64,000 bases of DNA from Candidatus Moranbacteria bacterium RIFOXYA12_FULL_35_19 (GTDB lineage Bacteria > Patescibacteriota > Minisyncoccia > Moranbacterales > UBA2206): contig MFSE01000021.1 of assembly GCA_001784805.1 (NCBI GenBank), positions 4,241 to 68,240 on the forward strand, read 5' to 3'. This document shows, in pieces, positions 10,671 to 64,000 of this stretch. A program made the position numbers and the translations under genes. The notes beneath the pieces are model-generated. The model did no database searches. It was not told the origin of the DNA and saw only the letters and a list, made by a program, of their open reading frames with translations. Every line of letters starts with the position of its first letter. Within the stretch, counting starts at the first letter, position 1.

Positions 10671-10737
10671 TTTTACGAAATACGAAATAAGCTAAATACT
10701 AAAAATTTTTCGTATTTCGTTTATTTCGTATTTAGTA
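10671..10737. repeat. TACGAAA-family intergenic hairpin element
   Basis: ttttacgaaatacgaaataagc ... tttcgtatttcgtttatttcgta. Confidence 0.75.
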
Positions 10738-10769
10738 AAGAATAAAAAATAATAATTAAACAAAAGTCT

Positions 10770-14654: not shown

Positions 14655-14738
14655 AAAAGCATATTAACATTTTAACATATTAACAAAAAAAACAAATTAA
14701 GCATGCTAAAATGCTAAAATGTTAATATGATAGAATGA
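14655..14738. repeat. GCTAAAAT/TTAACAT-family hairpin element (paired with 16145-16225)
   Basis: gcatattaacattttaacatattaac ... gcatgctaaaatgctaaaatgttaatatg. Confidence 0.7.
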
Positions 14739-15642: not shown

Positions 15643-16143
15643 TTAAATATTAAGTATTTCTTCTAACTTTTTATCAAGGTCGTCATTTTTTGGAGATTCT
15701 GGCTGGGTTTTTTCGGAATTTTTTTCGAGACTAACTTCGGGAGTTTCTTTTATTCCAGCCTTTTTTTCTATAATTTCCTTTTTTTTGGCTTTGTTTTTTT
15801 GAACAGTTTCTTTTTTGGTCAAATCCTCCATTCTTTCGTTTTTAGTTTTGAGTTCTGGCAAGTCTTGTGCTTTGCTCAAAATAAATCTGGCAATATTAGT
15901 GTTAAGATTAAATTTGGCGGTAATTTCTTTTAGATTTTGAGTATCTTCCAGATTGAATCGGCGGGCAATGTAGATTCCGTGATTTTCTTTGCCGACAGTG
16001 TAAGAAAGTTTTCTTTTTTCTAGCGTTTCTTTTTCCAGAAACTCTCCACCAGCATCTTTTACGATTTTTTCCACTTCAGACTTAATGTTTTCTAGCTCGT
16101 TTTCTTTCGAAGCGCCGACTAGATAGAAAATTTCATAGGTCAT
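15643..16143 (-). CDS. rpsF: 30S ribosomal protein S6 with C-terminal acidic extension
   Basis: MTYEIFYLVGASKENELENIKSEVEKIVKDAGGEFLEKETLEKRKLSYTV S6 core. Confidence 0.85.
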   Translation of the reverse strand: MTYEIFYLVGASKENELENIKSEVEKIVKDAGGEFLEKETLEKRKLSYTVGKENHGIYIARRFNLEDTQNLKEITAKFNLNTNIARFILSKAQDLPELKTKNERMEDLTKKETVQKNKAKKKEIIEKKAGIKETPEVSLEKNSEKTQPESPKNDDLDKKLEEILNI

Positions 16144-16144
16144 A

Positions 16145-16225
16145 TTGTCATTTTAGCATGTTAGCATATTAACAAAAAGTTATTAGCATTTGTTAAAATG
16201 CTAAAATGTTAATATGTTAAAATGA
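16145..16225. repeat. GCTAAAAT/TTAGCAT-family hairpin element (paired with 14655-14738)
   Basis: ttttagcatgttagcatattaac ... gttaaaatgctaaaatgttaatatg. Confidence 0.7.
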
Positions 16226-16384: not shown

Positions 16385-16494
16385 TTTACGAAATACCCGC
16401 CTCGACTCGCGGAGACCGCTTGTCGACGCGAGGCGGGCGAAATAAGCGAAATACTAAAGTACGAAAAGGGAACTTAATTGTTTCGTATTTCGTA
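16385..16494. repeat. TACGAAA-family hairpin carrying a 42-bp GC-rich palindromic insert at 16396-16437
   Basis: cccgcctcgactcgcggagaccgcttgtcgacgcgaggcggg sits inside the AT-rich arms. The insert is related, in reverse complement, to the in-frame element in dnaE at 58494-58571. Confidence 0.75.
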
Positions 16495-24735: not shown

Positions 24736-24766
24736 TACGAATTACGAAAATTTACGAATGTACGAA
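24736..24766. repeat. left terminal inverted repeat flanking the GxxExxY gene
   Basis: ctacgaattacgaaaatttacgaatgtacgaa; the reverse complement of 25167-25198 matches at 28/32 positions. Confidence 0.8.
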
Positions 24767-25159
24767 AATAAATATAAAATTAAAAAAGACATATTATATC
24801 CACAGGAAGTTTTTGAAATTGTGGGGATTATGTATGATGTTTGGGATAAGGTTGGTTATGGGCATAAAGAAATTTTTTATGAAAAGGCTGCTGCAGAAAT
24901 ATTTAGAAAGAAAAATAAAAAATTTAAAGAGCAATTAAGATGCAAAGTAAAATTAGGAGATAAGGATTTGGGAATATACATTTTTGATTTTATTTATGAA
25001 GAAAAAATAGTCATTGAATTAAAACAGGGAGAAAATTTTTCAAAACAAAATATTAATCAAGTTTATGCTTATTTGAAAGCGACTAATCTGAAACTTGGGT
25101 TGCTTATCAATTTTACAAGAAAAGGTGTAAAGTTTAAAAGAATTGTAAATATAAAATAA
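24758..25159 (+). CDS. GxxExxY family protein (PD-(D/E)xK nuclease-like, TIGR04256-type)
   Basis: VGYGHKEIFYEKA (GxxExxY), DFIYEEKIVIELK (D..E.K), and C-terminal LKLGLLINFTRKGVKFKRIVN family signature. Confidence 0.85.
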   Translation: MYENKYKIKKDILYPQEVFEIVGIMYDVWDKVGYGHKEIFYEKAAAEIFRKKNKKFKEQLRCKVKLGDKDLGIYIFDFIYEEKIVIELKQGENFSKQNINQVYAYLKATNLKLGLLINFTRKGVKFKRIVNIK

Positions 25160-29352: not shown

Positions 29353-31299
29353 ATGGAAAACCCCAATTTTCTCAAACAAAAATTCAATCTTCACAATGCT
29401 AAAGAAGTCAAGGCGGCGGCTAAGCACCCTGATGAAAAAATTCCCAACAATCCAGATGACCAAATCCAAAATTATCTGAATCGTTTGGAAAACTTAGTCA
29501 TCGATTCGGAAAAGAAACAAAAAAGAAAAATGCTTGACGGAGAGCAACGCCCACGAGCTCTTTTTCTTCTGCGAGAAATGCTCCTGAATAAATATGTAAG
29601 ACAAAATAAAGAAAAAATGGCGGAGGGTGCCGTTAGAGTGGAAGAGCGAGCGGCCAGAGAATTGGGAATTGACGCGCATTATGGCGAAGATGAAATTGAA
29701 CAAAGAGGCAATATTGCAGTTAGTGATTTGGAAAAATCATTAGATAATTGGATAACTTATCTCACTGATGCTAACGAATCATATCCGACTTGGTTTCGTT
29801 ACTATGCTTTTCGTAGCATTTTAGGTCTTGGCGATTATGATAAAGACAAAGGAGAATTCCCTAATCGTTCTCAAGGTACAGCTAAACTTTTTCCTGATAT
29901 TGATCGAGGAGCTTTGGCTTACATCCGAGATATCATTGAAGCGGAAAAAGATCCAATAATTTTGGAAAGACTAAAAAAAGCCCAACAAGCTAATCAAACT
30001 CCCGAAGATCAACAAATCACCAAGGAAAAAGCTGAAAAATTTGCCAAACTTTCTTTTGCCAAGCAATATAAAGAAGGAATCAAGCAAGCTGGCGAAATTA
30101 CTCCCGAAATGCGAGAGATTACCGAAGGCAAGTGGGTGAAATATCAAAAAGATACTGATCCCACCGCTCTTTGGGTAAGCTTGCAAAACAAAGGTACAGC
30201 TTGGTGCACGAAAGGTTTTGCCACTGCCGAAACTCAACTGCAAGGCGGAGATTTTTATGTTTATTACACTCTCGACAAACAAGGCAAACCAACTATTCCG
30301 AGAATTGCCATCAGAATGCAAGACAATCAAATTTTTGAAACTCGTGGTGTTTCTGATAATCAACAAAATCTTGAAAGCAATATGATTGACATTGCCGAAA
30401 AGAAAATGGATGAACTTCCTGGTAAAGAAAAATACAAAAAAACTTCTGCTGATATGAAACAACTGACTGAAATTGAAAAGAAAACCAAATCTAATCAAGA
30501 ATTAACCAAGGAAGAATTAGTTTTTCTTTATGAAATAGATGATAAAATTCAAGGTTTTGGATATAATGAAGACCCAAGAATAAAAGAGATTAGGGAGCAA
30601 AGAAAACCAAATATCCAAAAAGACGCATCAATCATTCTTGAATGTGAATCCAATCAAATCGCCAATAAACCAGAAGACATCAATGAAAATACCAAGGCAT
30701 ATATTGGAGAACTAAAATCAGAAATTTTCGAATCAATTCAAAAATATAACATTGAAAATATTTATACCTCATTTCCTGAAGGTAAAATAGAAAAATTTGA
30801 GATGGAACTAGGAGGAAGAACAAAACCAGAAATTGAAAGTGAATTGGAAAAAAGAAAAAAAGCAGAGGGAGATGAAAAAATATACACTTCTGATTATGCT
30901 GAAAGTATGCTAAAAAAACCAGAATTTTTTGTGCAAGAAAAAAAAGAACAATCCAGTTTCGTTAAAATAAAAGTAGGAGATCTCGGTTTTCCTAATGGAG
31001 CAACTGTGCAAGAAATTTATGAAAAAGCCGAAAAACTAGGCTTGGAACTGTGTCCACCAGAAACAGGACCAACAATCAGATTGGATTATGAGAAAATTTT
31101 TCAAAAAGAACAACCAAGAAGAGAATATTTTTGGATTGCGATGAAACAAATAGCCGGCTCTGACGGCTATCCGAGCGTGTTCCGTGTGGGTCGCGGCGAT
31201 GGCGGCGAGTCGTGGCTGGGTGACCGTTGGGCGCGGCCTGACGGCGAGTGGGGTGCTGGCATTGGGGTTGTCTTTCGCCTCCGCAAATTTGAAACTTAA
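29353..31299 (+). CDS. DGR target protein with C-terminal C-type-lectin-like (DUF1566/FGE-like) variable domain
   Basis: The C-terminus ...SDGYPSVFRVGRGDGGESWLGDRWARPDGEWGAGIGVVFRLRK is encoded by VR; no signal peptide; N-terminal 590 aa unassigned. Confidence 0.8.
   Translation: MENPNFLKQKFNLHNAKEVKAAAKHPDEKIPNNPDDQIQNYLNRLENLVIDSEKKQKRKMLDGEQRPRALFLLREMLLNKYVRQNKEKMAEGAVRVEERAARELGIDAHYGEDEIEQRGNIAVSDLEKSLDNWITYLTDANESYPTWFRYYAFRSILGLGDYDKDKGEFPNRSQGTAKLFPDIDRGALAYIRDIIEAEKDPIILERLKKAQQANQTPEDQQITKEKAEKFAKLSFAKQYKEGIKQAGEITPEMREITEGKWVKYQKDTDPTALWVSLQNKGTAWCTKGFATAETQLQGGDFYVYYTLDKQGKPTIPRIAIRMQDNQIFETRGVSDNQQNLESNMIDIAEKKMDELPGKEKYKKTSADMKQLTEIEKKTKSNQELTKEELVFLYEIDDKIQGFGYNEDPRIKEIREQRKPNIQKDASIILECESNQIANKPEDINENTKAYIGELKSEIFESIQKYNIENIYTSFPEGKIEKFEMELGGRTKPEIESELEKRKKAEGDEKIYTSDYAESMLKKPEFFVQEKKEQSSFVKIKVGDLGFPNGATVQEIYEKAEKLGLELCPPETGPTIRLDYEKIFQKEQPRREYFWIAMKQIAGSDGYPSVFRVGRGDGGESWLGDRWARPDGEWGAGIGVVFRLRKFET
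31154..31286 (+). repeat. DGR variable repeat (VR)
   Basis: 133 nt aligning to 31628-31760; about 22 mismatches, every one at an adenine of TR. Confidence 0.9.
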
Positions 31300-31315
31300 A
31301 TTTTTTGAATTTTTG

Positions 31316-31333
31316 ATCCGCCAGTTGGCGGAT
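31316..31333 (+). promoter_or_regulatory. GC-rich hairpin 30 nt downstream of VR (atccgcc-agtt-ggcggat)
   Basis: 7-bp GC stem with a 4-nt loop, placed just 3' of the VR-TR homology as in characterised DGRs. Confidence 0.6.
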
Positions 31334-31627
31334 TGAAACTTTGAAACTTTATTACTTTGACACTTTCTTTCGCGCGAATTTTTTGGTATCATTAATTTGG
31401 ATTGGTTGCATCGAACGGTTACGACTTTTCGAGACCTTTCTCGCAAGCGCAAATTGAGAGCGCGGACGGTCAAGACTTTCCGCGGAGGATTTGCGTCAAG
31501 TTTTCTAAAAAGAAAAAATTTGGTGTGCTGTGCTGGTGGATTTTAGATTCCAAATAAAATACAGCGTTGCTCCTTTTGCCAAATAGCGAATTGAGTAGGC
31601 AGTGGAATAGATGGCATGGCATACAAA

Positions 31628-31760
31628 ACCGACTCTGACGGCTATCCGAACGTGTTCAATGTGAATCGCAACGATGACGGCAAGTCGTGGCTGAATGACA
31701 ATTGGGCGAAGCCTGACAACAAGTGGAATGCTGACAATGAGATTGTCTTTCGCCTCCGAA
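31628..31760 (+). repeat. DGR template repeat (TR)
   Basis: Adenine-rich (AAC/AAT codons in the VR frame); ends with gtctttcgcctccgaaag (IMH*-like); lies in a locally GC-richer, probably structured transcript region. Confidence 0.9.
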
Positions 31761-31778
31761 AGTATTTTCTTTTCCGCA

Positions 31779-32129
31779 TTATTCAAAAGTGCGGTTTTTC
31801 TTTGGCGAATTTTCCAGTTTATTTTTCCAGCCCCATAACATCCTGCCAACTTCTTCAAGTTTGAGTGCAATTTCTTCGTATTGTTTATGAGAAATCAGTT
31901 TTGCGTCCCATGCTACGGAAATGATGAACTTAAGTTTGTCCAAAAGGAAAATACATTCAGAAATTTTTTCAATCTTTTCTTCTTTTTTGGAAAAATAAGT
32001 GATATAGCCAAGTTCTAATAAATCAAGAAGTTTATTTTCAATTCTTGCGCCGATGGTGTAGCGCGCATTTTTCTGTATATGAGGAACAATATTAATCCAA
32101 ATCAAATATCCCTCTTTGATTCTTTGCAA
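31779..32129 (-). CDS. avd: Avd-like accessory variability determinant (four-helix-bundle, TIGR02436-like)
   Basis: 116 aa; the C-terminus ISHKQYEEIALKLEEVGRMLWGWKNKL matches the family pattern ..EE.L....EI.KML.GL; opposite strand to TR/RT and overlaps the RT start by 14 nt. Confidence 0.6.
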   Translation of the reverse strand: MQRIKEGYLIWINIVPHIQKNARYTIGARIENKLLDLLELGYITYFSKKEEKIEKISECIFLLDKLKFIISVAWDAKLISHKQYEEIALKLEEVGRMLWGWKNKLENSPKKNRTFE

Positions 32130-33192
32130 AATCGAAGCATTATTCGAGAGAGAGAGAGAGAGTAAAAGGCTTTTCCATATTTATGATGATATCATCTCTT
32201 TTGAAAATTTGCTAATTTCGTGGCAAGAATTTTTGTGTGGAAAAAGAAAACGTAAAGATGTGGCAGAATTTTCTTTGAATTTTATGGACAATATTTTCGC
32301 GCTTCATAAAGAACTCAAAGAAAGAACTTATCAACACGGTGGATATCAAGCTTTCAAAATTAGCGATCCAAAACCGAGAGATATTCATAAGGCCAGTGTT
32401 CGTGATCGACTAGTACATCACGCTATTTATCGGATTGTATACCCATATTTTGAGGAGAAATTCATTTTTGATTCTTATTCTTGCCGAATCAAAAAAGGCA
32501 CGCATAAAGCGATAAATCGTTTTCGATATTTTAGCCTAAAAGTTTCAAAAAATAATACTCAAACTTGTTGGATTTTGAAATGCGACATCAGAAAATTTTT
32601 CGCCAATATTGATCACCAAGTTCTCAAAAATATTTTAGCCAAAAATATCGTGGATGAAAATGTTTTATGGCTTATGACGCAAGTTATTGATAGTTTTACC
32701 TCGCCCCAGCCCTCTCCTTGTAAAGGAGAGGGGATTAAAGGTCTTCCGCTGGGCAATTTAACTAGCCAGCTTCTGGTGAATATTTATATGAATGAATTTG
32801 ATCAATATGCGAAAAGAGAATTAAAAACGAAATATTATATCCGCTACGCTGATGACTTTGTGATTTTTCACGAAAACAAAAATTATTTAGAAGATCTTAT
32901 CTCTGAAATTTCTAAATTTTTGGAAAATAAACTCAAACTTTCTCTCCATCCGGATAAAGTTAGCATAAATACGCTATCTTCGGGCGTTGATTTTCTTGGC
33001 TGGGTGAATTTTTCGAAACATAGAATTTTACGGACAAGCACAAAAAGAAGGATGATAAAAAAAATTAAGAAAAATACCACGCCAGAAGCAGTTGCTTCTT
33101 ATTTGGGTTTACTTTTGCATGGAAATACATATAAATTGGCAAATAAAATAACAAAGCTCTATTTTGAAAAGAAGAAGATTTCCAATATTTGA
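32116..33192 (+). CDS. DGR reverse transcriptase
   Basis: NLL..W.EF..GKRKRKDVAEF N-terminal region, RDRLVHHA, CRIKKGTH, LPLGNLTSQLLVNIY (DGR-specific SQ motif), IRYADDFVIF. Confidence 0.9.
   Translation: MILCKIEALFERERESKRLFHIYDDIISFENLLISWQEFLCGKRKRKDVAEFSLNFMDNIFALHKELKERTYQHGGYQAFKISDPKPRDIHKASVRDRLVHHAIYRIVYPYFEEKFIFDSYSCRIKKGTHKAINRFRYFSLKVSKNNTQTCWILKCDIRKFFANIDHQVLKNILAKNIVDENVLWLMTQVIDSFTSPQPSPCKGEGIKGLPLGNLTSQLLVNIYMNEFDQYAKRELKTKYYIRYADDFVIFHENKNYLEDLISEISKFLENKLKLSLHPDKVSINTLSSGVDFLGWVNFSKHRILRTSTKRRMIKKIKKNTTPEAVASYLGLLLHGNTYKLANKITKLYFEKKKISNI
32146..32162 (+). repeat. (GA)8 dinucleotide microsatellite inside the 5' end of the RT ORF
   Basis: gagagagagagagagag within codons 11-16 of the annotated RT start. 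Confidence 0.9.
32710..32733 (+). repeat. GC palindrome (ccctctcctt-gtaa-aggagaggg) in-frame in the RT, just before the SQ motif
   Basis: Encodes SPQPSPCKGEG. The Bordetella-type RT has no equivalent residues here. Same ccctctc/gagaggg termini as elements in miaA, dnaE and 33265-33319. Confidence 0.7.
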
Positions 33193-38032: not shown

Positions 38033-38127
38033 CCTACAAAATTACAAAAACATACAAAAATACAAAAGTACAAAAAATTAGAATTTCGTAATTTTGTACT
38101 TTTGTAAAAATTTGTATTTTTGTAGGG
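38033..38127. repeat. TACAAAA-family hairpin element (pair partner at 38973-39066)
   Basis: acaaaattacaaaaacatacaaaaatacaaaagtacaaaa / gtacttttgtaaaaatttgtatttttgtagg. Confidence 0.75.
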
Positions 38128-56053: not shown

Positions 56054-56123
56054 TTTTACTTGAAACTGAAAAAGGCCTTGCGAAAGCCTGCCTCATCGGC
56101 AGACAAGCGGGGTCTTTTTTTAT

Positions 56124-56210
56124 GTTTTACGAACTACGAAATAAGCGAAATACGAAACAATAAAACTTTCTTTTCGTATTTCGTTAGTTTCGTAGTTCGT
56201 AAATTAAAAA
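56124..56210. repeat. TACGAAA-family hairpin element
   Basis: ttttacgaactacgaaataagcgaaatacgaaac ... ttttcgtatttcgttagtttcgtagttcgtaa. Confidence 0.85.
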
Positions 56211-57419: not shown

Positions 57420-60400
57420 TTACCAAATATCAACCTTCCCCTCCGGCACAATTATTTTCAAAGCTTTTTCGAGCTCTGTGGTGTTTTGGATGCAGTAGGG
57501 GGTTTCGAGCTTGGATCCGCCAATGGAAAGATATACTTTCATAGCACCTAGTTCGCAACGATCAAATAGGGAGGAGAGATTTTTTAGGATGGCTTTGTCG
57601 AAATTTGGTGGGAGGGTAATAATTAATCTGGAAGATTTATTTGCCCTCTCTTGTCCCGACAAAGTCGGGATATACTCTCCCAAGGGGAGAGGAGGATTTT
57701 GAAGAGATTTTTTTGTAGGCTCACCGCCATTGTTTCTTTGCGTGTGGAGAATTCTTTTGAAATTTTCTAATTCTTGCTGGTTGATTGATTTGGCGCTGTC
57801 GCAAAGCAATTTGAATTCGCCGTCTTTGTCGGAAATTTTTCCCGTGGCTAAAATAATTTTGTCTACTTCCCAGATTGAACCGGTGGCTTCTAGAGTTTTG
57901 GGAAAAATCAAAATTTCCATTTGAGAAGTCGTATCTTCAATGGTGGCAAAAGCCATCATTTTTTGATTTTTGAGATAAATCTTTTTTATTTTGGAAATTA
58001 TTCCGCCGATGGAAACGGTTTGTCCAACCAGTTGAGGATTTATATTTCGAATTGGCACGGCCATTTTTTCTAAATAATCTTGATAATCTCGAACCGGATG
58101 ATCGCTAATATAAAGTCCAAGGAGTTCCTTTTCCCAAGCAAGCTTTTCTTTTTTAGAAGCCTCCACGGAAATCTCCAATTTTATTTCTGGCAATTTCATA
58201 TCTGCTTCTCCAAAAAGACTATTTTGTTTAGTACTTGAAATTTTTTCCAAATTTTTGGAGTGAGCGAGAATGTTTTCAATAGAAGATAAAACGGCATTTC
58301 TTTCGGCCAATTCTTCTAGCGCACCAACTTTTGAGAGAGCCTCAATGGATTTTTTATTCAAATCTTTATGCTTTACTCTTTCAATGAAATTAGTTAGACT
58401 CAAAAATTTTCCGCCTCTTTTTCTTTCTTCGACAATTTCATGAGCGACTGTGTGGCCGACATTTTTTACCGCATTTAATCCAAAGCGGATTTTCCCGCCT
58501 CGCGTCGACTCGCCTCGATCCGACAATCGAGTCGGAGCGGGCGAGCGATCGTCTCCGCGAGTCGAGGCGGGTTTAGTATTATTTTCTTCATTCATGATCA
58601 CGGCAAACTGCTCAAAACTTTCATTGACATTCGGGGACAGAACTTCGATGCCCATTTCTCGACACTCGGCAATTTCAATGGCGACACGATCAATATTGTC
58701 TTGATCAGAAGTGAGAAGCGCGGCCATAAATTCGGCTGGAAAATGCGCTTTCAGATAAGCGGTTTGATAGCCGACTAGCGCATAACACGCGGCATGACTT
58801 CTATTAAACCCATATCCCGCAAAAGGTTCGATGTAGGCAAAAACTTTTTCTCCAATAGTTCCGGCGATGCCTTGTTTCATACAGCCTTCAATGAATTTAT
58901 GTTTTTGCTCGGTAATCAGCGCAAAGATTTTTTTACCCATTGCTTTTCGAAGTACATCGGCTTCACCAAGAGTGAATCCGGCCAAGGCTTGAGCGATTTG
59001 CATCACTTGCTCTTGATAGACTGCCACACCGTAAGTTTTTTCTAAAATCGGTTTCAAATTCGGATGCAAATATTTAATTTCTTTCTCGCCGTGTTTTCTG
59101 GCGATAAAATCCGGAATCCAATCCATAGGACCGGGGCGATATAGCGCTACCATAGCAATAATGTCTTCAAGAACATTGGGCTTCAAGAGTTTTAGATATC
59201 TTTTCATTCCAGAACTTTCTAGTTGAAATACGCCGGTGGTGCGAGCTTCTTGCAAAAGGCGAAAAGTTTTTTTGTCATCCAGTGGTATATCGTCAATGTT
59301 GATTTCTTTTTGGCGAGTTTTTTTTACGATCTTAAGCGTGTTTTGAATAATAGTTAAATTTTTTAGTCCCAAAAAGTCCATTTTCAAAAGGCCAATTTTT
59401 TCCACAAAACTATATTTAGTCGAAGAAGAATATTGCGTCACAGTGCCGTCGCCTTTGCCGGTTATTTTTTGCAACGGAGTATATTCACTCACAGGTTCTT
59501 TGGTGATAACTACTCCGCAAGCATGCATCGAGGCATGACGCACCACACCTTCGAGCCGTCCGGCGCTGTCAATTAATTTTTTTCCTCCCTCATTATTTTT
59601 ATGCAAATCGCTAAATTCTTTGACATTTTCTAAAGCATCGGAAATTGTAGAAAACATCGGAATCATTTTAGCGGTTTTGTCGCAAAAGTCATAAGGCAGA
59701 CCGAGCGCCCGACCAGCGTCGCGGATGGCAGCGCGGGCGGCCATAGTTCCAAAAGTGATGATTTGCGCCACATGATCATTGCCATATTTTTTTCTCACAT
59801 ATTCCAAAACTTCATCTCTTCTGTCATCGGCAAAATCCATATCGACATCAGGCATAGAAATTCTTTCAGGATTCAAAAATCTTTCAAATAGTAAATCGTA
59901 TTTTATCGGATCAATATTAGTGATACCGATGAGATAGGAAACGAAACTTCCGGCAGCGCTACCGCGGCCGGGGCCAACCACGATGCCTTGTTCTTTGGCC
60001 CAATTGACAAAATCTTGCACGATCAAAAAGTAAGAAGCAAAACCAGTTTTTCTAATCACATCTAATTCATATTCCATTCTTTGTTTTTGCTCGGAGTCAA
60101 TATTCTCGCCAAATCTTTTTTTGAGTCCATCTTCGGTAAGACGCCGAAGATAAGTTTCAGCCGTATAACTTTGCGGAACATCAAATTCCGGAAGTTGAGT
60201 CTCCCCAAGTTTTATAGTAAGGTTGCATTTATCCACGATTTCTTGAGTATTAGCCAGTGCTTCGGGAATATTTTTGAAATGCTCGGCCATTTCCTCGGGG
60301 CTTTTGAGATAGAGCTCAAAAGCCATCAAATTCATGCGATTAGTTTCAGTAACTTTTTTGTTAGTCTGAATACACAGTAAAATATCTTGAATTTCATTGT

Positions 60401-61043
60401 CTTCTTTTTTTACATAGTGAATGTCATTGGTAGCGACTAGAGGAATATCTAATTTTTTAGAAATTGCGACAAGGGCATTATTGGCAATACTTTGGTTTTC
60501 AAATTTCGGATGATGTTGGATTTCTAAATAAAAATTACCTTTACCAAAAATTTCTTGATATTCTAGCGCCAACTTTTCTGCTTTTTCAAGATTGCCGGAA
60601 ATGGCGGTGGAAGGAACTTCTCCTTCGGCGCAAGCTGATAGCCCGATTAGTCCTTCAGAATATTTTCGAAGAATTTCTTTGTTGATTCTGGGTTTGTAAT
60701 AGAATCCTTCCAAATGAGCAATGGAAATTAGTTTCATCAAATTCTTATAGCCTTTTTCATTTTTGCAGAGTAAAATCAAATGATAGCGAGTTTTATCTTC
60801 TTGAGTATTATTTTTACTTAGATAATCTCCCGCGGTGAGATACATTTCACAGCCGATAATTGGTTTTATTCCTCGCTCTTTGGCTTTGATATAAAACTCA
60901 ATGGCGCCATAAAGCACGCCATGATCAGTAATGGCGAGAGAATCCATTCCCAATTCTTTGGCACGATCAAGAATGTCATCGACCTTGGCGAGACCGTCTA
61001 ATAGTGAATAGTGAGTATGGACATGGAGGTGGGTGAATTTCAT
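57420..61043 (-). CDS. dnaE: DNA polymerase III alpha subunit, carrying two in-frame GC-rich palindromic insertions
   Basis: PHP domain MKFTHLHVHTHYSLLDG, polymerase core, OB-fold; 1207 aa. Confidence 0.95.
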   Translation of the reverse strand: MKFTHLHVHTHYSLLDGLAKVDDILDRAKELGMDSLAITDHGVLYGAIEFYIKAKERGIKPIIGCEMYLTAGDYLSKNNTQEDKTRYHLILLCKNEKGYKNLMKLISIAHLEGFYYKPRINKEILRKYSEGLIGLSACAEGEVPSTAISGNLEKAEKLALEYQEIFGKGNFYLEIQHHPKFENQSIANNALVAISKKLDIPLVATNDIHYVKKEDNEIQDILLCIQTNKKVTETNRMNLMAFELYLKSPEEMAEHFKNIPEALANTQEIVDKCNLTIKLGETQLPEFDVPQSYTAETYLRRLTEDGLKKRFGENIDSEQKQRMEYELDVIRKTGFASYFLIVQDFVNWAKEQGIVVGPGRGSAAGSFVSYLIGITNIDPIKYDLLFERFLNPERISMPDVDMDFADDRRDEVLEYVRKKYGNDHVAQIITFGTMAARAAIRDAGRALGLPYDFCDKTAKMIPMFSTISDALENVKEFSDLHKNNEGGKKLIDSAGRLEGVVRHASMHACGVVITKEPVSEYTPLQKITGKGDGTVTQYSSSTKYSFVEKIGLLKMDFLGLKNLTIIQNTLKIVKKTRQKEINIDDIPLDDKKTFRLLQEARTTGVFQLESSGMKRYLKLLKPNVLEDIIAMVALYRPGPMDWIPDFIARKHGEKEIKYLHPNLKPILEKTYGVAVYQEQVMQIAQALAGFTLGEADVLRKAMGKKIFALITEQKHKFIEGCMKQGIAGTIGEKVFAYIEPFAGYGFNRSHAACYALVGYQTAYLKAHFPAEFMAALLTSDQDNIDRVAIEIAECREMGIEVLSPNVNESFEQFAVIMNEENNTKPASTRGDDRSPAPTRLSDRGESTRGGKIRFGLNAVKNVGHTVAHEIVEERKRGGKFLSLTNFIERVKHKDLNKKSIEALSKVGALEELAERNAVLSSIENILAHSKNLEKISSTKQNSLFGEADMKLPEIKLEISVEASKKEKLAWEKELLGLYISDHPVRDYQDYLEKMAVPIRNINPQLVGQTVSIGGIISKIKKIYLKNQKMMAFATIEDTTSQMEILIFPKTLEATGSIWEVDKIILATGKISDKDGEFKLLCDSAKSINQQELENFKRILHTQRNNGGEPTKKSLQNPPLPLGEYIPTLSGQERANKSSRLIITLPPNFDKAILKNLSSLFDRCELGAMKVYLSIGGSKLETPYCIQNTTELEKALKIIVPEGKVDIW
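57643..57695. repeat. GC-rich compound palindromic element (family 1) in-frame in dnaE
   Basis: gccctctcttgtcccgacaaagtcgggatatactctcccaaggggagaggagg encodes PPLPLGEYIPTLSGQERA; compare the miaA insertion SLPLGEMS. Confidence 0.8.
58494..58571. repeat. GC-rich palindromic element (family 2, cccgcctcg...cgaggcggg) in-frame in dnaE
   Basis: 78 nt = 26 codons (TKPASTRGDDRSPAPTRLSDRGESTR), absent from E. coli DnaE at this position; the reverse complement matches the intergenic copy at 16396-16437. Confidence 0.8.
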
Positions 61044-61046
61044 AAT

Positions 61047-61132
61047 GTTTTACGAAATACGAAATAAGCGAAATACGAAACGATTAAACTTCATTTTCGT
61101 ACTTTCGTATTTCGTTCATTTTGTAGTTCGTA
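61047..61132. repeat. TACGAAA-family hairpin element upstream of dnaE
   Basis: ttttacgaaatacgaaataagcgaaatacgaaacg ... ttttcgtactttcgtatttcgttcattttgtagttcgtaa. Confidence 0.85.
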
Positions 61133-61219
61133 ATTTGAGCGAAATAAAAACTGGTTCAAGCTAGTTGATAATCCAGTCGTTTAAAATAAAATAAAGTTTT
61201 GTCATATGATTATGTTCTC

Positions 61220-63129: not shown

Positions 63130-64000
63130 TGAAACACGAAATTCAAAAACTTATTAAAAAAGCAGTAAAAGAGCTTGGCTATAAAATAGACGAGGTTGAA
63201 GTTGACTATCCGAAAGTCGAAAATTTTGGTGATTATACGACGAATGTGGCGATGGTTTTGGCCAAGGGTGCGAAGAAGAATCCAATGGAAATTGCTGAGG
63301 AAATAATTGCTGTCATTGCGAGCGAAGCGAAGCAATCTCATAGTGTTAAGACTAATCTTGCTAAGAATGAGATTGCCACAGTCGCTATGCTCCTTCGCAA
63401 TGACAATAAGCTTTTCGAAAAAGTTGAGGTTGTGAAGCCGGGGTATGTTAATTTCTATCTGTCGAAAAAATATTTGCAAGATAAAGTTCAAGAGATAAAT
63501 AAACTAGAAAATAAATTTGGCGATGGCGAAAAGAAAAAAGAAAAAATAATGGTTGAATATTCCCAGCCGAATACACACAAAGAATTTCATATTGGGCATT
63601 TGCGAAATGTTTTTATTGGAAATTCTTTGGTTAATATTTTAAAGAAAGTTAAAAATAATGTTATTTCGGCTAATTATATTGGCGACACGGGAACGCATAT
63701 TGCTAAGTGTCTTTGGGGGATGGTGAAATTTTATTCAGACGAAAATTTAGACAGTATCAAGAATAAAGCGGAGTTTTTAGGAAAAGCTTATTCGCAGGCG
63801 TCAAAGGCTATCGAAGAAAATTCAGAACTCGAAAAAGAATTTAAGGATTTGCAAAAACAATTTGAAGCAGGCGATAAAAAATTAATTGAAATATGGGAAA
63901 AAACCAAACAATGGTCGTTGGATGAATTCCAAGAAATATACAAAGAATTAGGAGTGGATTTTGATGTTTATTTTTGGGAAAGTGAAGAAGAAAAAGCTGG
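63130..64000 (+). CDS. argS: arginine--tRNA ligase (3'-truncated by window edge), with in-frame 93-nt palindromic insertion
   Basis: FHIGHLRN (HIGH) motif; N-terminal add-1 domain; ORF runs off the window end. Confidence 0.85.
63313..63405. repeat. 93-nt palindromic element (family 3) in-frame in argS
   Basis: gtcattgcgagcgaagcgaagcaatctc...gagattgccacagtcgctatgctccttcgcaatgac; encodes VIASEAKQSHSVKTNLAKNEIATVAMLLRNDN, about 27 aa more than E. coli ArgS at this site. Confidence 0.85.

Follow-up and report, generated by a model that had tools for sequence, protein, structure and literature searches.

An in-frame palindromic insert in dnaE of a Moranbacteria genome: probably a copy of a short hairpin-forming mobile repeat of the Patescibacteria

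The dnaE gene of Candidatus Moranbacteria bacterium RIFOXYA12_FULL_35_19, which encodes the alpha subunit of DNA polymerase III, holds 78 nucleotides (nt) of GC-rich palindromic sequence in its reading frame, and the question raised by this locus is how such a segment came to lie in an essential replicase gene. The analysis was performed on 64,000 nt of this genome (GenBank assembly GCA_001784805.1, contig MFSE01000021.1, positions 4,241 to 68,240 of the forward strand), hereafter termed the window. In a preliminary description, prepared from the sequence alone, the 78 nt had been read as an in-frame member of a dispersed palindrome family ("family 2") with a relative in an intergenic hairpin of the same window; they were present at 58494–58571 exactly as quoted there. 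This reading was supported by an empty site in related genomes, by the identical allele on independently assembled contigs, by more than 115 further loci, by in-frame copies in other housekeeping genes and by turnover between sister genomes. With a probability of roughly 0.8, these 78 nt belong to a family of mobile repeats, short, non-autonomous and hairpin-forming, that is widespread in Patescibacteria (candidate phyla radiation, CPR), and are translated in dnaE.

The insertion itself was established by alignment to orthologues. Two relatives with 85–86% identical DnaE (L009 and L010) showed a clean empty site with an exact 78-nt gap, so that the segment, as an insertion of exactly 26 codons, is absent from them. 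At the site, the window reads ...ACTAAA (78 nt) AAAATCCG..., L009 reads ...ACCAAG / AAAATCCG... and L010 reads ...ACAAAA / AAAATTCG...; the element sits between two lysine codons, and no target-site duplication was found at dnaE in the comparison of the window with L009 and L010. The window DnaE was 91% identical to the DnaE of a metagenome-assembled genome (MAG) named Candidatus Moranbacteria, and the exact 1207-aa protein is recorded in groundwater Moranbacteria MAGs, including GCA_001784915.1. In total, this identical DnaE was found on at least 20 independent contigs from ENA, JGI, NCBI and Logan assemblies. Within the 90% protein cluster, strain variants known from fragments carried the insert as well, every member that covers the site being filled, and the allele appears to be fixed in the sampled population. 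The search for insert-free strains, as proposed earlier, thus yielded none within the species, the empty sites being those of the relatives at 85–86% identity. JGI metagenomes gave no matches for an empty or shorter dnaE allele and none for the filled allele used as positive control, which means that the species is not in that collection.

As for composition, the GC content was 71.8% for the element, 35.4% for the window and 39.8% for dnaE. Folded as DNA, the element formed a long imperfect hairpin (−30.8 kcal/mol, z = −4.6; none of 200 shuffles was as good), and as mRNA a hairpin of −47.5 kcal/mol. Its terminal inverted repeats comprise a perfect 9-bp pair (CCCGCCTCG/CGAGGCGGG). That the termini recur, inverted, in the intergenic copy at 16396–16437 was confirmed: the two copies agree in the first 16 and the last 21 nt, and the dnaE copy has about 33–36 nt of internal sequence beyond that copy. 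Deletion of the module at 58510–58542, which joins CCCGCCTCGCGTCGAC to GAGCGATCGTCTCCGCGAGTCGAGGCGGG, gives the canonical 45-mer form of the family; the dnaE copy accordingly equals a canonical 45-mer with the loop GAGCGATCGTCTCC plus these ~33 nt, which form a second hairpin. Both window copies were open, i.e. free of stops, in all six frames. A gapped pattern made from both termini matched these two sites only, with none expected (100 shuffles). With the family profile, nhmmer matched the intergenic copy at E = 3.9e-13 and detected no other copy, not even a degenerate one, in the window, L009 or L010.

Within the protein, the insert lies inside the HHH_6 match, which runs about 30 residues over the profile length (Pfam). 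In the alignment with Thermus aquaticus Pol III alpha (2HPI), the whole insert segment was left unaligned at the turn FKVVG / EEILFGL, near residue 884; with 2HPI and M. tuberculosis DnaE1 (5LEW), the dropout was placed at the hairpin turn ...FKVVG / EEILFGLSAVKNVG..., just before the helix-hairpin-helix motif. The earlier placement at the boundary of polymerase core and fingers was therefore wrong, since the fingers cover residues 562–725 and the insert follows them, at the beta-hairpin turn before the helix-hairpin-helix; the E. coli alignment given with that placement (...GEIVYGIGAIKGVG) agrees with the turn. In an AlphaFold2 model of residues 700–1000, residues 818–849 had predicted local distance difference test (pLDDT) values below 50 and no secondary structure, and were located between strands 814–816 and 851–853.

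Sixty orthologues were aligned over this region. Most Moranbacteria DnaE had a turn of 4–5 residues at the insert site (e.g. FAVITDAENNTKKIRFGLNA), and 13 of the 60 carried other, unrelated inserts in the same loop; judged from these sequences, the turn is a recurrent permissive hotspot. An essential replicase does tolerate such an insertion, as had been pointed out, but the term "striking" is not warranted, as in-frame palindromes are common in the lineage and about one fifth of the orthologues have other inserts in the loop. The relative L007 (DnaE 91% identical) carried there an 87-nt hairpin-forming insert unrelated to the element family, and no second copy of it was found in the fetched DNA. 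Inserts of 6–40 residues, equivalent to 58476–58589, were present in P0001, P0010, P0015, P0019, P0021, P0027 and P0028, with P0030, P0038, P0049, P0055, P0058 and P0060 as further carriers of unrelated inserts; several had the "TDLTQTNAD..NPRSVS" look of other repeat families. In related lineages, dnaE is also home to classical inteins, and the Moranbacteria DnaE proteins P0034, P0038 and P0041 (1362–1639 aa) contained the intein domains PF14890 and PF14528. An intein or mini-intein was rejected for the window insert, which has only 26 low-complexity residues and no Pfam match, whereas inteins need at least about 130 residues with conserved terminal blocks.

Table 1. Positions of dnaE, of the 78-nt element with its parts and flanks, and of the second copy in the window
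Feature	Position	Strand	Remarks
dnaE (DNA polymerase III alpha, 1207 aa)	57420..61043	minus	ORF + Pfam
DnaE domains (residues)			PHP 5-178; NTPase/palm 298-559; fingers 562-725; HHH_6 798-915; OB 1010-1085 (Pfam)
GC-rich composite palindromic element, 78 nt	58494..58571	minus (translated)	DnaE residues 824-849, PASTRGDDRSPAPTRLSDRGESTRGG
Left terminus CCCGCCTCGCGTCGAC	58494..58509		identical in the 42-nt window copy, three L007 copies and ~120 copies elsewhere (matches listed)
Extra inner hairpin module, ~33 nt, TCGCCTCGATCCGACAATCGAGTCGGAGCGGGC	58510..58542		edges ambiguous by a few nt
Loop remainder + right terminus GAGCGATCGTCTCCGCGAGTCGAGGCGGG	58543..58571		
Upstream flank in coding direction (codons ...E N N T K)	58572..58589	minus	orthologue and structure alignment
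Other flank (K I R F G L)	58476..58493	minus	with 58572-58589, the two strands of the invaded beta-hairpin
Intergenic copy, 42 nt, opposite orientation	16396..16437		between the S6 and YchF genes, in an AT-rich TTACGAAATA-type hairpin

The family was collected in one scan of species-representative genomes with a pattern of 12 + 10 fixed nt and a variable gap, which returned at least 115 stretches; the family counts given below were obtained among the matches listed from that scan. As a lower bound, more than 115 loci had the same termini, CCCGCCTCGCGTCGAC...CGAGTCGAGGCGGG. The unselected flanks CCCG...CGGG were found in 119 of 122 listed matches (87–100% per position), and because these flanks lie outside the search pattern and are conserved, the 119 are taken as true relatives. 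Three matches in genomes of more than 60% GC (Streptomyces, Coriobacteriales, Myxococcales) were discarded as chance hits without the CCCG/CGGG flanks. Copies were mostly located in Moranbacteria, with at least 15 in one MAG, and other host labels were Saccharibacteria, Nomura-, Pacei-, Levyi-, Gottesman-, Woese-, Buchanan- and Parcubacteria. Copy-bearing TopA proteins were only 40–44% identical, indicating deep divergence of the hosts, and wherever checked the hosts were, by their protein sequences, Patescibacteria.

Some copy-bearing MAGs were labelled Bdellovibrionales, Gammaproteobacteria, Burkholderiales or Bathyarchaeia. A spread beyond the CPR was considered for two of these labels and discarded, as the UvrA of the "Bdellovibrionales" MAG was 71% identical to Moranbacteria UvrA and the best named relatives of the RecG of the "Gammaproteobacteria" MAG were all Patescibacteria. 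For CAZFCX01 and CAZFZQ01, the two MAGs checked, the taxonomic labels appear to be wrong on the basis of these comparisons. The MAGs with labels of this kind were low in GC (33–46%): CAZFCX01 (L013, L114, L117, L121), CAZFZQ01 (L022, L085) and JAMPXW01 (L116). Viral contigs contained no family copy and hence gave no evidence for a phage vector. No Rfam family was matched at gathering thresholds, and a permissive search gave chance-level miRNA hairpin matches far below threshold.

The listed matches comprised 98 distinct element sequences, the most frequent lengths being 45 nt (n = 25), 42 nt (n = 20), 39 nt (n = 16) and 38 nt (n = 11). Simple copies measured about 36–45 nt and composites 57–89 nt, with a GC content of 72–76%. 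The conserved GC-rich termini, CCCGCCTCGCGTCGAC ... (GTCTCC)GCGAGTCGAGGCGGG, pair with each other and enclose a short inner stem-loop; RNAalifold favoured a shifted alternative register over this terminal pairing. The outer stem is fixed by the search pattern and hence uninformative on covariation. For the inner 4-bp stem of the 45-mers (columns 19–22 with 29–32), both-side changes were found in three of four pairs, with the variants GCGG/CCGC, GTGG/CCAC, GCAA/TTGC and GCGA/TCGC. Double changes filled 16 cells, a value reached in none of 500 shuffles and far above that of slid controls. Because the inner stem is the only part left free by the search pattern, this covariation is a genuine sign of selection on the hairpin.

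Nested modules resembling that of dnaE were present in the composites L088, L085, L025, L040 and L073, and in the fetched loci the inner 33-nt module was never found alone outside composites. Simple and composite forms were paired at three orthologous protein sites: the RecG site was empty in P0128–P0131, held 39 nt in P0127 and 57 nt in P0126; L013 and L112 (45 nt) corresponded to L030 (87 nt); and L114 (45 nt) corresponded to L040 (69 nt). On account of these pairs, composites seem to arise inside resident copies. A single-cell Patescibacteria genome (L110) contained two identical 47-nt copies with identical flanks at 2011–2057 and 2337–2383, 326 nt apart, which has the look of a local tandem duplication with the element inside the duplicated stretch.

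Turnover was seen between close genomes. L007 carried three copies in 18 kb, namely two 42-mers in intergenic AT-rich hairpins and one 45-mer in argS, and across the region syntenic between L007 and the window genome none of the four occupied sites was common to both. At argS, the L007 45-mer is in frame (NVAMVLA-RLDSRRQSLVDARRV-KIAKKNP) and the window genome is empty; the boundary of this site is ambiguous by 2 nt. One of the L007 copies (L007:496), compared with its empty counterpart in L001, gave a clean 42-nt gap at ...AAATA / CGAAA..., without a duplication. Among 121 flanks, a weak purine–element–pyrimidine tendency but no conserved flank was observed, and intergenic copies were often located within AT-rich hairpins of the TTACGAA(A/T)TA type.

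For copies within genes, an element was counted as inside an open reading frame (ORF) if it was flanked by 25 or more codons on either side within an ORF of 150 or more codons, with one continuous frame across the element. This applied to 61 of 123 listed copies. A length divisible by three was found for 53 of these 61, as compared with 36 of the 62 copies elsewhere (Fisher p = 5e-4). Where copies lay between long open frames, 39 were in phase and 2, both doubtful, were out of phase, and among the listed copies no convincing case was found in which a gene was split between two frames. Stops occurred in only 38 of 726 element reading frames, largely because of the GC richness. All six frames were used with a strong skew (chi-square p = 1.5e-12; the counts are not fully independent, as some copies are orthologous): 32 copies encoded PASTRGD..STRGG, the frame used in dnaE, 13 encoded PPRVDE..RVEAG, 6 each ARLDSRR..VDARR and RLASTS..ESRRA, 3 PASRRQ..ASRGG, and 1 used the other frame. 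The family peptide is PASTRGDDRSSTRGG, and the loops added to housekeeping proteins measure 13–26 residues. Hosts identified by Pfam included UvrA (several), UvrB, a UvrD/AddA-like helicase-nuclease, RecG, topoisomerase I (three), GyrB and DnaG, as well as SecA (two), SecDF, LepA, GlmS, a Mur ligase, LytR, Wzy and a radical-SAM enzyme. Conservation of the frame together with its bias is what would be expected if the segments are translated and the peptides filtered by selection, and it argues against bypass or RNA excision.

From these data, the following course of events is proposed. The element would have entered dnaE of the window lineage after the split from the 85–86% identical relatives, landing between two lysine codons at the surface beta-hairpin turn before the helix-hairpin-helix and leaving no target-site duplication. 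Owing to its length, a multiple of three, and to its high GC content without stops in any frame, it would be read through, adding to the polymerase a hydrophilic and probably disordered loop of 26 residues, which is tolerated. Translation of the element in dnaE is thus presumed from the sequence, and the loop is probably neutral or nearly so. Spread would be mediated by a trans-acting enzyme that recognises the single-stranded, folded hairpin, either as DNA or as RNA. A miniature transposable element with inverted repeats (MITE) of the DDE type is unlikely because of the missing target-site duplication at dnaE and L007:496; since this absence is combined with dependence on the hairpin, an HUH/Y1-type or other structure-specific mechanism would fit better than a DDE transposase.

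With respect to a mobilising partner, no RAYT (REP-associated tyrosine transposase) gene was found in ~60 kb of annotated genes covering the window and its surroundings, and the reverse transcriptase of the window belongs to a diversity-generating retroelement. PDDEXK_3 nuclease genes were tried as candidates and rejected, as 802 kb of element-bearing loci contained three homologues, none of which adjoins an element. These genes (window 24758–25159; L001 4412–4795; P0191, P0197, P0235) are small and lie between housekeeping genes, one of them between NiFe-hydrogenase subunit genes and one beside ileS; in some Falkowbacteria, RecG contains this domain as an internal fusion. Their appearance is that of a separate family of selfish genes.

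Several points weigh against the mobile-repeat interpretation. No transposase was present among the genes annotated across the same ~60 kb, and with the PDDEXK_3 genes rejected no partner is at hand. Within the 90% protein cluster, the species showed no allele lacking the insert, for which reason the case for mobility at the dnaE site is a purely phylogenetic one. That divergent genomes have copies at one and the same orthologous site, as in UvrA and RecG, could be due to long retention or to site preference instead of free mobility. Conservation of the termini is partly due to ascertainment, as 22 nt were fixed by the search pattern. The enrichment of lengths divisible by three is partly circular, a continuous frame having been required for copies inside ORFs, and the comparison of phases addresses this point only indirectly. 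For translation, an mRNA hairpin of −47.5 kcal/mol would be a sizeable obstacle, and the AlphaFold2 model in which the loop appeared disordered was weak overall (mean pLDDT 60.9).

The best-surviving alternative, which we nevertheless regard as improbable, is that the element is a DNA or RNA motif beneficial to the host (a protein-binding site, a structural or regulatory element, or a recombination or uptake signal), kept by host selection, with the coding copies being incidental. Termini that are near-identical in hosts with such divergent TopA, an inner stem whose covariation implies structural selection, orthologous sites filled in several divergent genomes and intergenic copies in AT-rich hairpins beside gene ends would all be in line with such a motif, but conserved ends and a covarying stem are expected equally of a mobile element that is recognised by its hairpin. 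Its distribution speaks against a host function: the density is sparse and irregular (two copies in the 64 kb of the window, none in the 38 kb of L009 and L010), positions differ between genomes with 91% identical DnaE, and coding sequences that are unrelated to one another hold half of the copies, with both orientations and all frames represented.

Marginally less probable still is an adaptive, lineage-specific extension of DnaE, in which the 26-residue loop would have been recruited as a contact to DNA, the clamp or the replisome and kept by selection on the protein. The loop adjoins the DNA-binding helix-hairpin-helix motif in the beta-binding domain, is rich in arginine and belongs to an allele fixed in all sampled members of the species, and the same loop was lengthened independently in many orthologues. 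Against recruitment, DNA coding for the same peptide is found in intergenic regions and in the genes of dozens of unrelated proteins, the extension is absent at 85–86% identity and replaced by unrelated sequence in the 91% identical relative, the loop is predicted to be unstructured, and nothing supports a later co-option.

We consider it very unlikely that the insert is present in the DNA but missing from the protein, owing to programmed ribosomal bypassing or to removal from the mRNA. The very stable mRNA hairpin would suit such a process, and the identical AAA codons flanking the element could in principle serve as take-off and landing codons, but the orthologues already have both lysine codons at their empty site. 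Moreover, gene-internal copies keep the frame and lack stops while copies of other lengths are intergenic, and one frame is strongly preferred; if the segments were not translated, neither a frame nor a stop constraint would exist. An assembly or binning artefact, i.e. a repeat-induced chimera, in favour of which it can be said that short GC-rich repeats can mislead assemblers and that the source is a MAG, is effectively refuted by the identical 1207-aa product on the independently assembled contigs from different samples, assemblers and archives, by slightly different strain variants with the same insert, and by an insertion exactly in frame with flanks colinear with the orthologues.

Further palindromes and features were noted in the window. 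A small hairpin-rich segment ("family 1") at 57640–57700 on the minus strand (CCTCTCCCCTTGGGAGAG...TCCCGACTTTGTCGGGA...AGAGAGGG) corresponds to DnaE residues ~1113–1135 and encodes PPLPLGEY..LSGQER in the variable C-terminal linker; because related PLPSGEDV..SRQER versions occur in P0001–P0005 and P0020–P0026, it is older than the family-2 insertion. A third palindromic in-frame insertion of ~117 nt is located at 63300–63416 on the plus strand, in argS (start ~63129, running off the window), with the arms GAAATAATTGCTGTCATTGCGA / TCGCAATGACAATAAGCTTTTC; it encodes ..IAVIASEAKQSHSVKTNLAKNEIATVAMLLRNDN.. and is absent from the ArgRS of L007. AT-rich intergenic hairpins composed of TACGAAATA-like units were found at 10672–10739, 14660–14729, 16141–16216, 38033–38126, 56119–56210 and 61050–61133, and the GC element at 16396 is inserted in one hairpin of this type. 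Between L007 and the window genome, the orthologous hairpin differs by an inversion of its loop, which amounts to a flip of the segment between the arms. The diversity-generating retroelement (29353–33192) comprises a 648-aa target protein without Pfam match, bAvd (~31779–32129, minus strand) and the reverse transcriptase (32260–33192). The GC-rich 3' end of the target gene (31141–31286) is repeated at 31616–31761 with 78% identity as variable/template repeat pair, so that the GC island at 31151–31285 is explained by the retroelement.

For its lineage, the single dnaE insertion is nothing unusual; what deserves interest is the family to which it points. The genomes of CPR bacteria are among the smallest and most streamlined known. 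If the interpretation as a mobile repeat is true, these bacteria carry "coding palindromes" like those of Rickettsia, three times smaller than the Rickettsia palindromic elements (RPEs) and distributed across many CPR classes. The unsolved questions of RPE-type elements, how they move and how proteins tolerate them, would become testable, as thousands of CPR genomes with and without copies allow phylogenetic profiling for the mobilising enzyme. Some Saccharibacteria can now be cultured and genetically manipulated. In practical terms, the inserts inflate and distort marker alignments (DnaE, UvrA, SecA, TopA, GyrB, ArgRS) and show where essential enzymes have permissive surface loops; metagenome assemblies may break at the copies. 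More tentatively, the family could represent an active, CPR-wide hairpin element with a mechanism new to bacterial repeats, in which a GC hairpin of 40 nt is recognised and no target site is duplicated, and with possible nesting of hairpins, which systematically adds loops of the PASTRGD..STRGG type to essential proteins of replication, repair, secretion and translation. This stronger version is rather doubtful at present; if correct, it would open a tractable way to learn how RPE-like palindromes move and would make the element a genuine source of new protein loops in ultra-small bacteria.

No report of such CPR elements was found in the literature, the coverage of which was incomplete, so that an earlier description is possible; the family is apparently undescribed. 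Several known systems can be compared. Bypass elements, exemplified by T4 gene 60 and the byp elements of Magnusiomyces mitochondria, break the frame or bear stops, whereas the dnaE copy has 78 nt and is stop-free in six frames, and gene-internal copies of the family are in frame. Bacterial MITEs (Correia, ERIC, BOX, Nezha) are short, non-autonomous elements with terminal inverted repeats and occasional in-frame fusions (PMC10969869). The terminal inverted repeats are shared with the CPR family; typical MITEs, in contrast, measure 50–500 bp, derive from insertion sequences with DDE transposases and make target duplications, and no duplication was seen at dnaE or L007:496.

Repetitive extragenic palindromic (REP) sequences are, by definition, extragenic; a genome has hundreds of them, headed by GTAG or CGTC (PMC3733652). 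The REP/REPIN-RAYT systems (IS200/IS605-like, Y1) resemble the CPR family in the short imperfect palindrome (20–45 nt), the likely recognition of a hairpin, the lack of target duplication and a presumed dependence on an enzyme encoded elsewhere. The CPR family differs in that about half of the copies are intragenic and at least ~15 copies occur per ~1-Mb genome; the ends of the CPR element are CCCG...CGGG, and CGTC occurs in it only internally, at consensus positions 10–13. Yeast mitochondrial GC clusters show substitutions that mostly lie in loops or are compensated, a sign of selection on the hairpin, and merged clusters, and the mechanism of their mobility is unresolved (PMC4478555). Such clusters (e.g. 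GC42) likewise are GC-rich hairpins of ~40 nt in an AT-rich genome, with composites and structure-preserving variation; they belong to fungal mitochondria, are mostly intergenic and duplicate AG, whereas the CPR elements have bacterial hosts, are half coding and show no duplicated dinucleotide at two empty sites. This resemblance is one of analogy, not homology.

RPEs are dispersed palindromes, many of them in frame in unrelated housekeeping ORFs, where they encode a peptide compatible with the fold, and the enzyme that moves them is unknown (PMC10969869). Like RPEs, the CPR elements are dispersed palindromes of a small AT-rich genome with in-frame copies in unrelated housekeeping ORFs, and about half of the copies lie in ORFs, similar to the proportion reported for R. 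conorii. They differ from RPEs (~100–150 bp; Rickettsia, Alphaproteobacteria) in size (36–45 nt, composites to ~90 nt; 72–76% GC) and in host (Patescibacteria), and in being open in, and using, all six frames.

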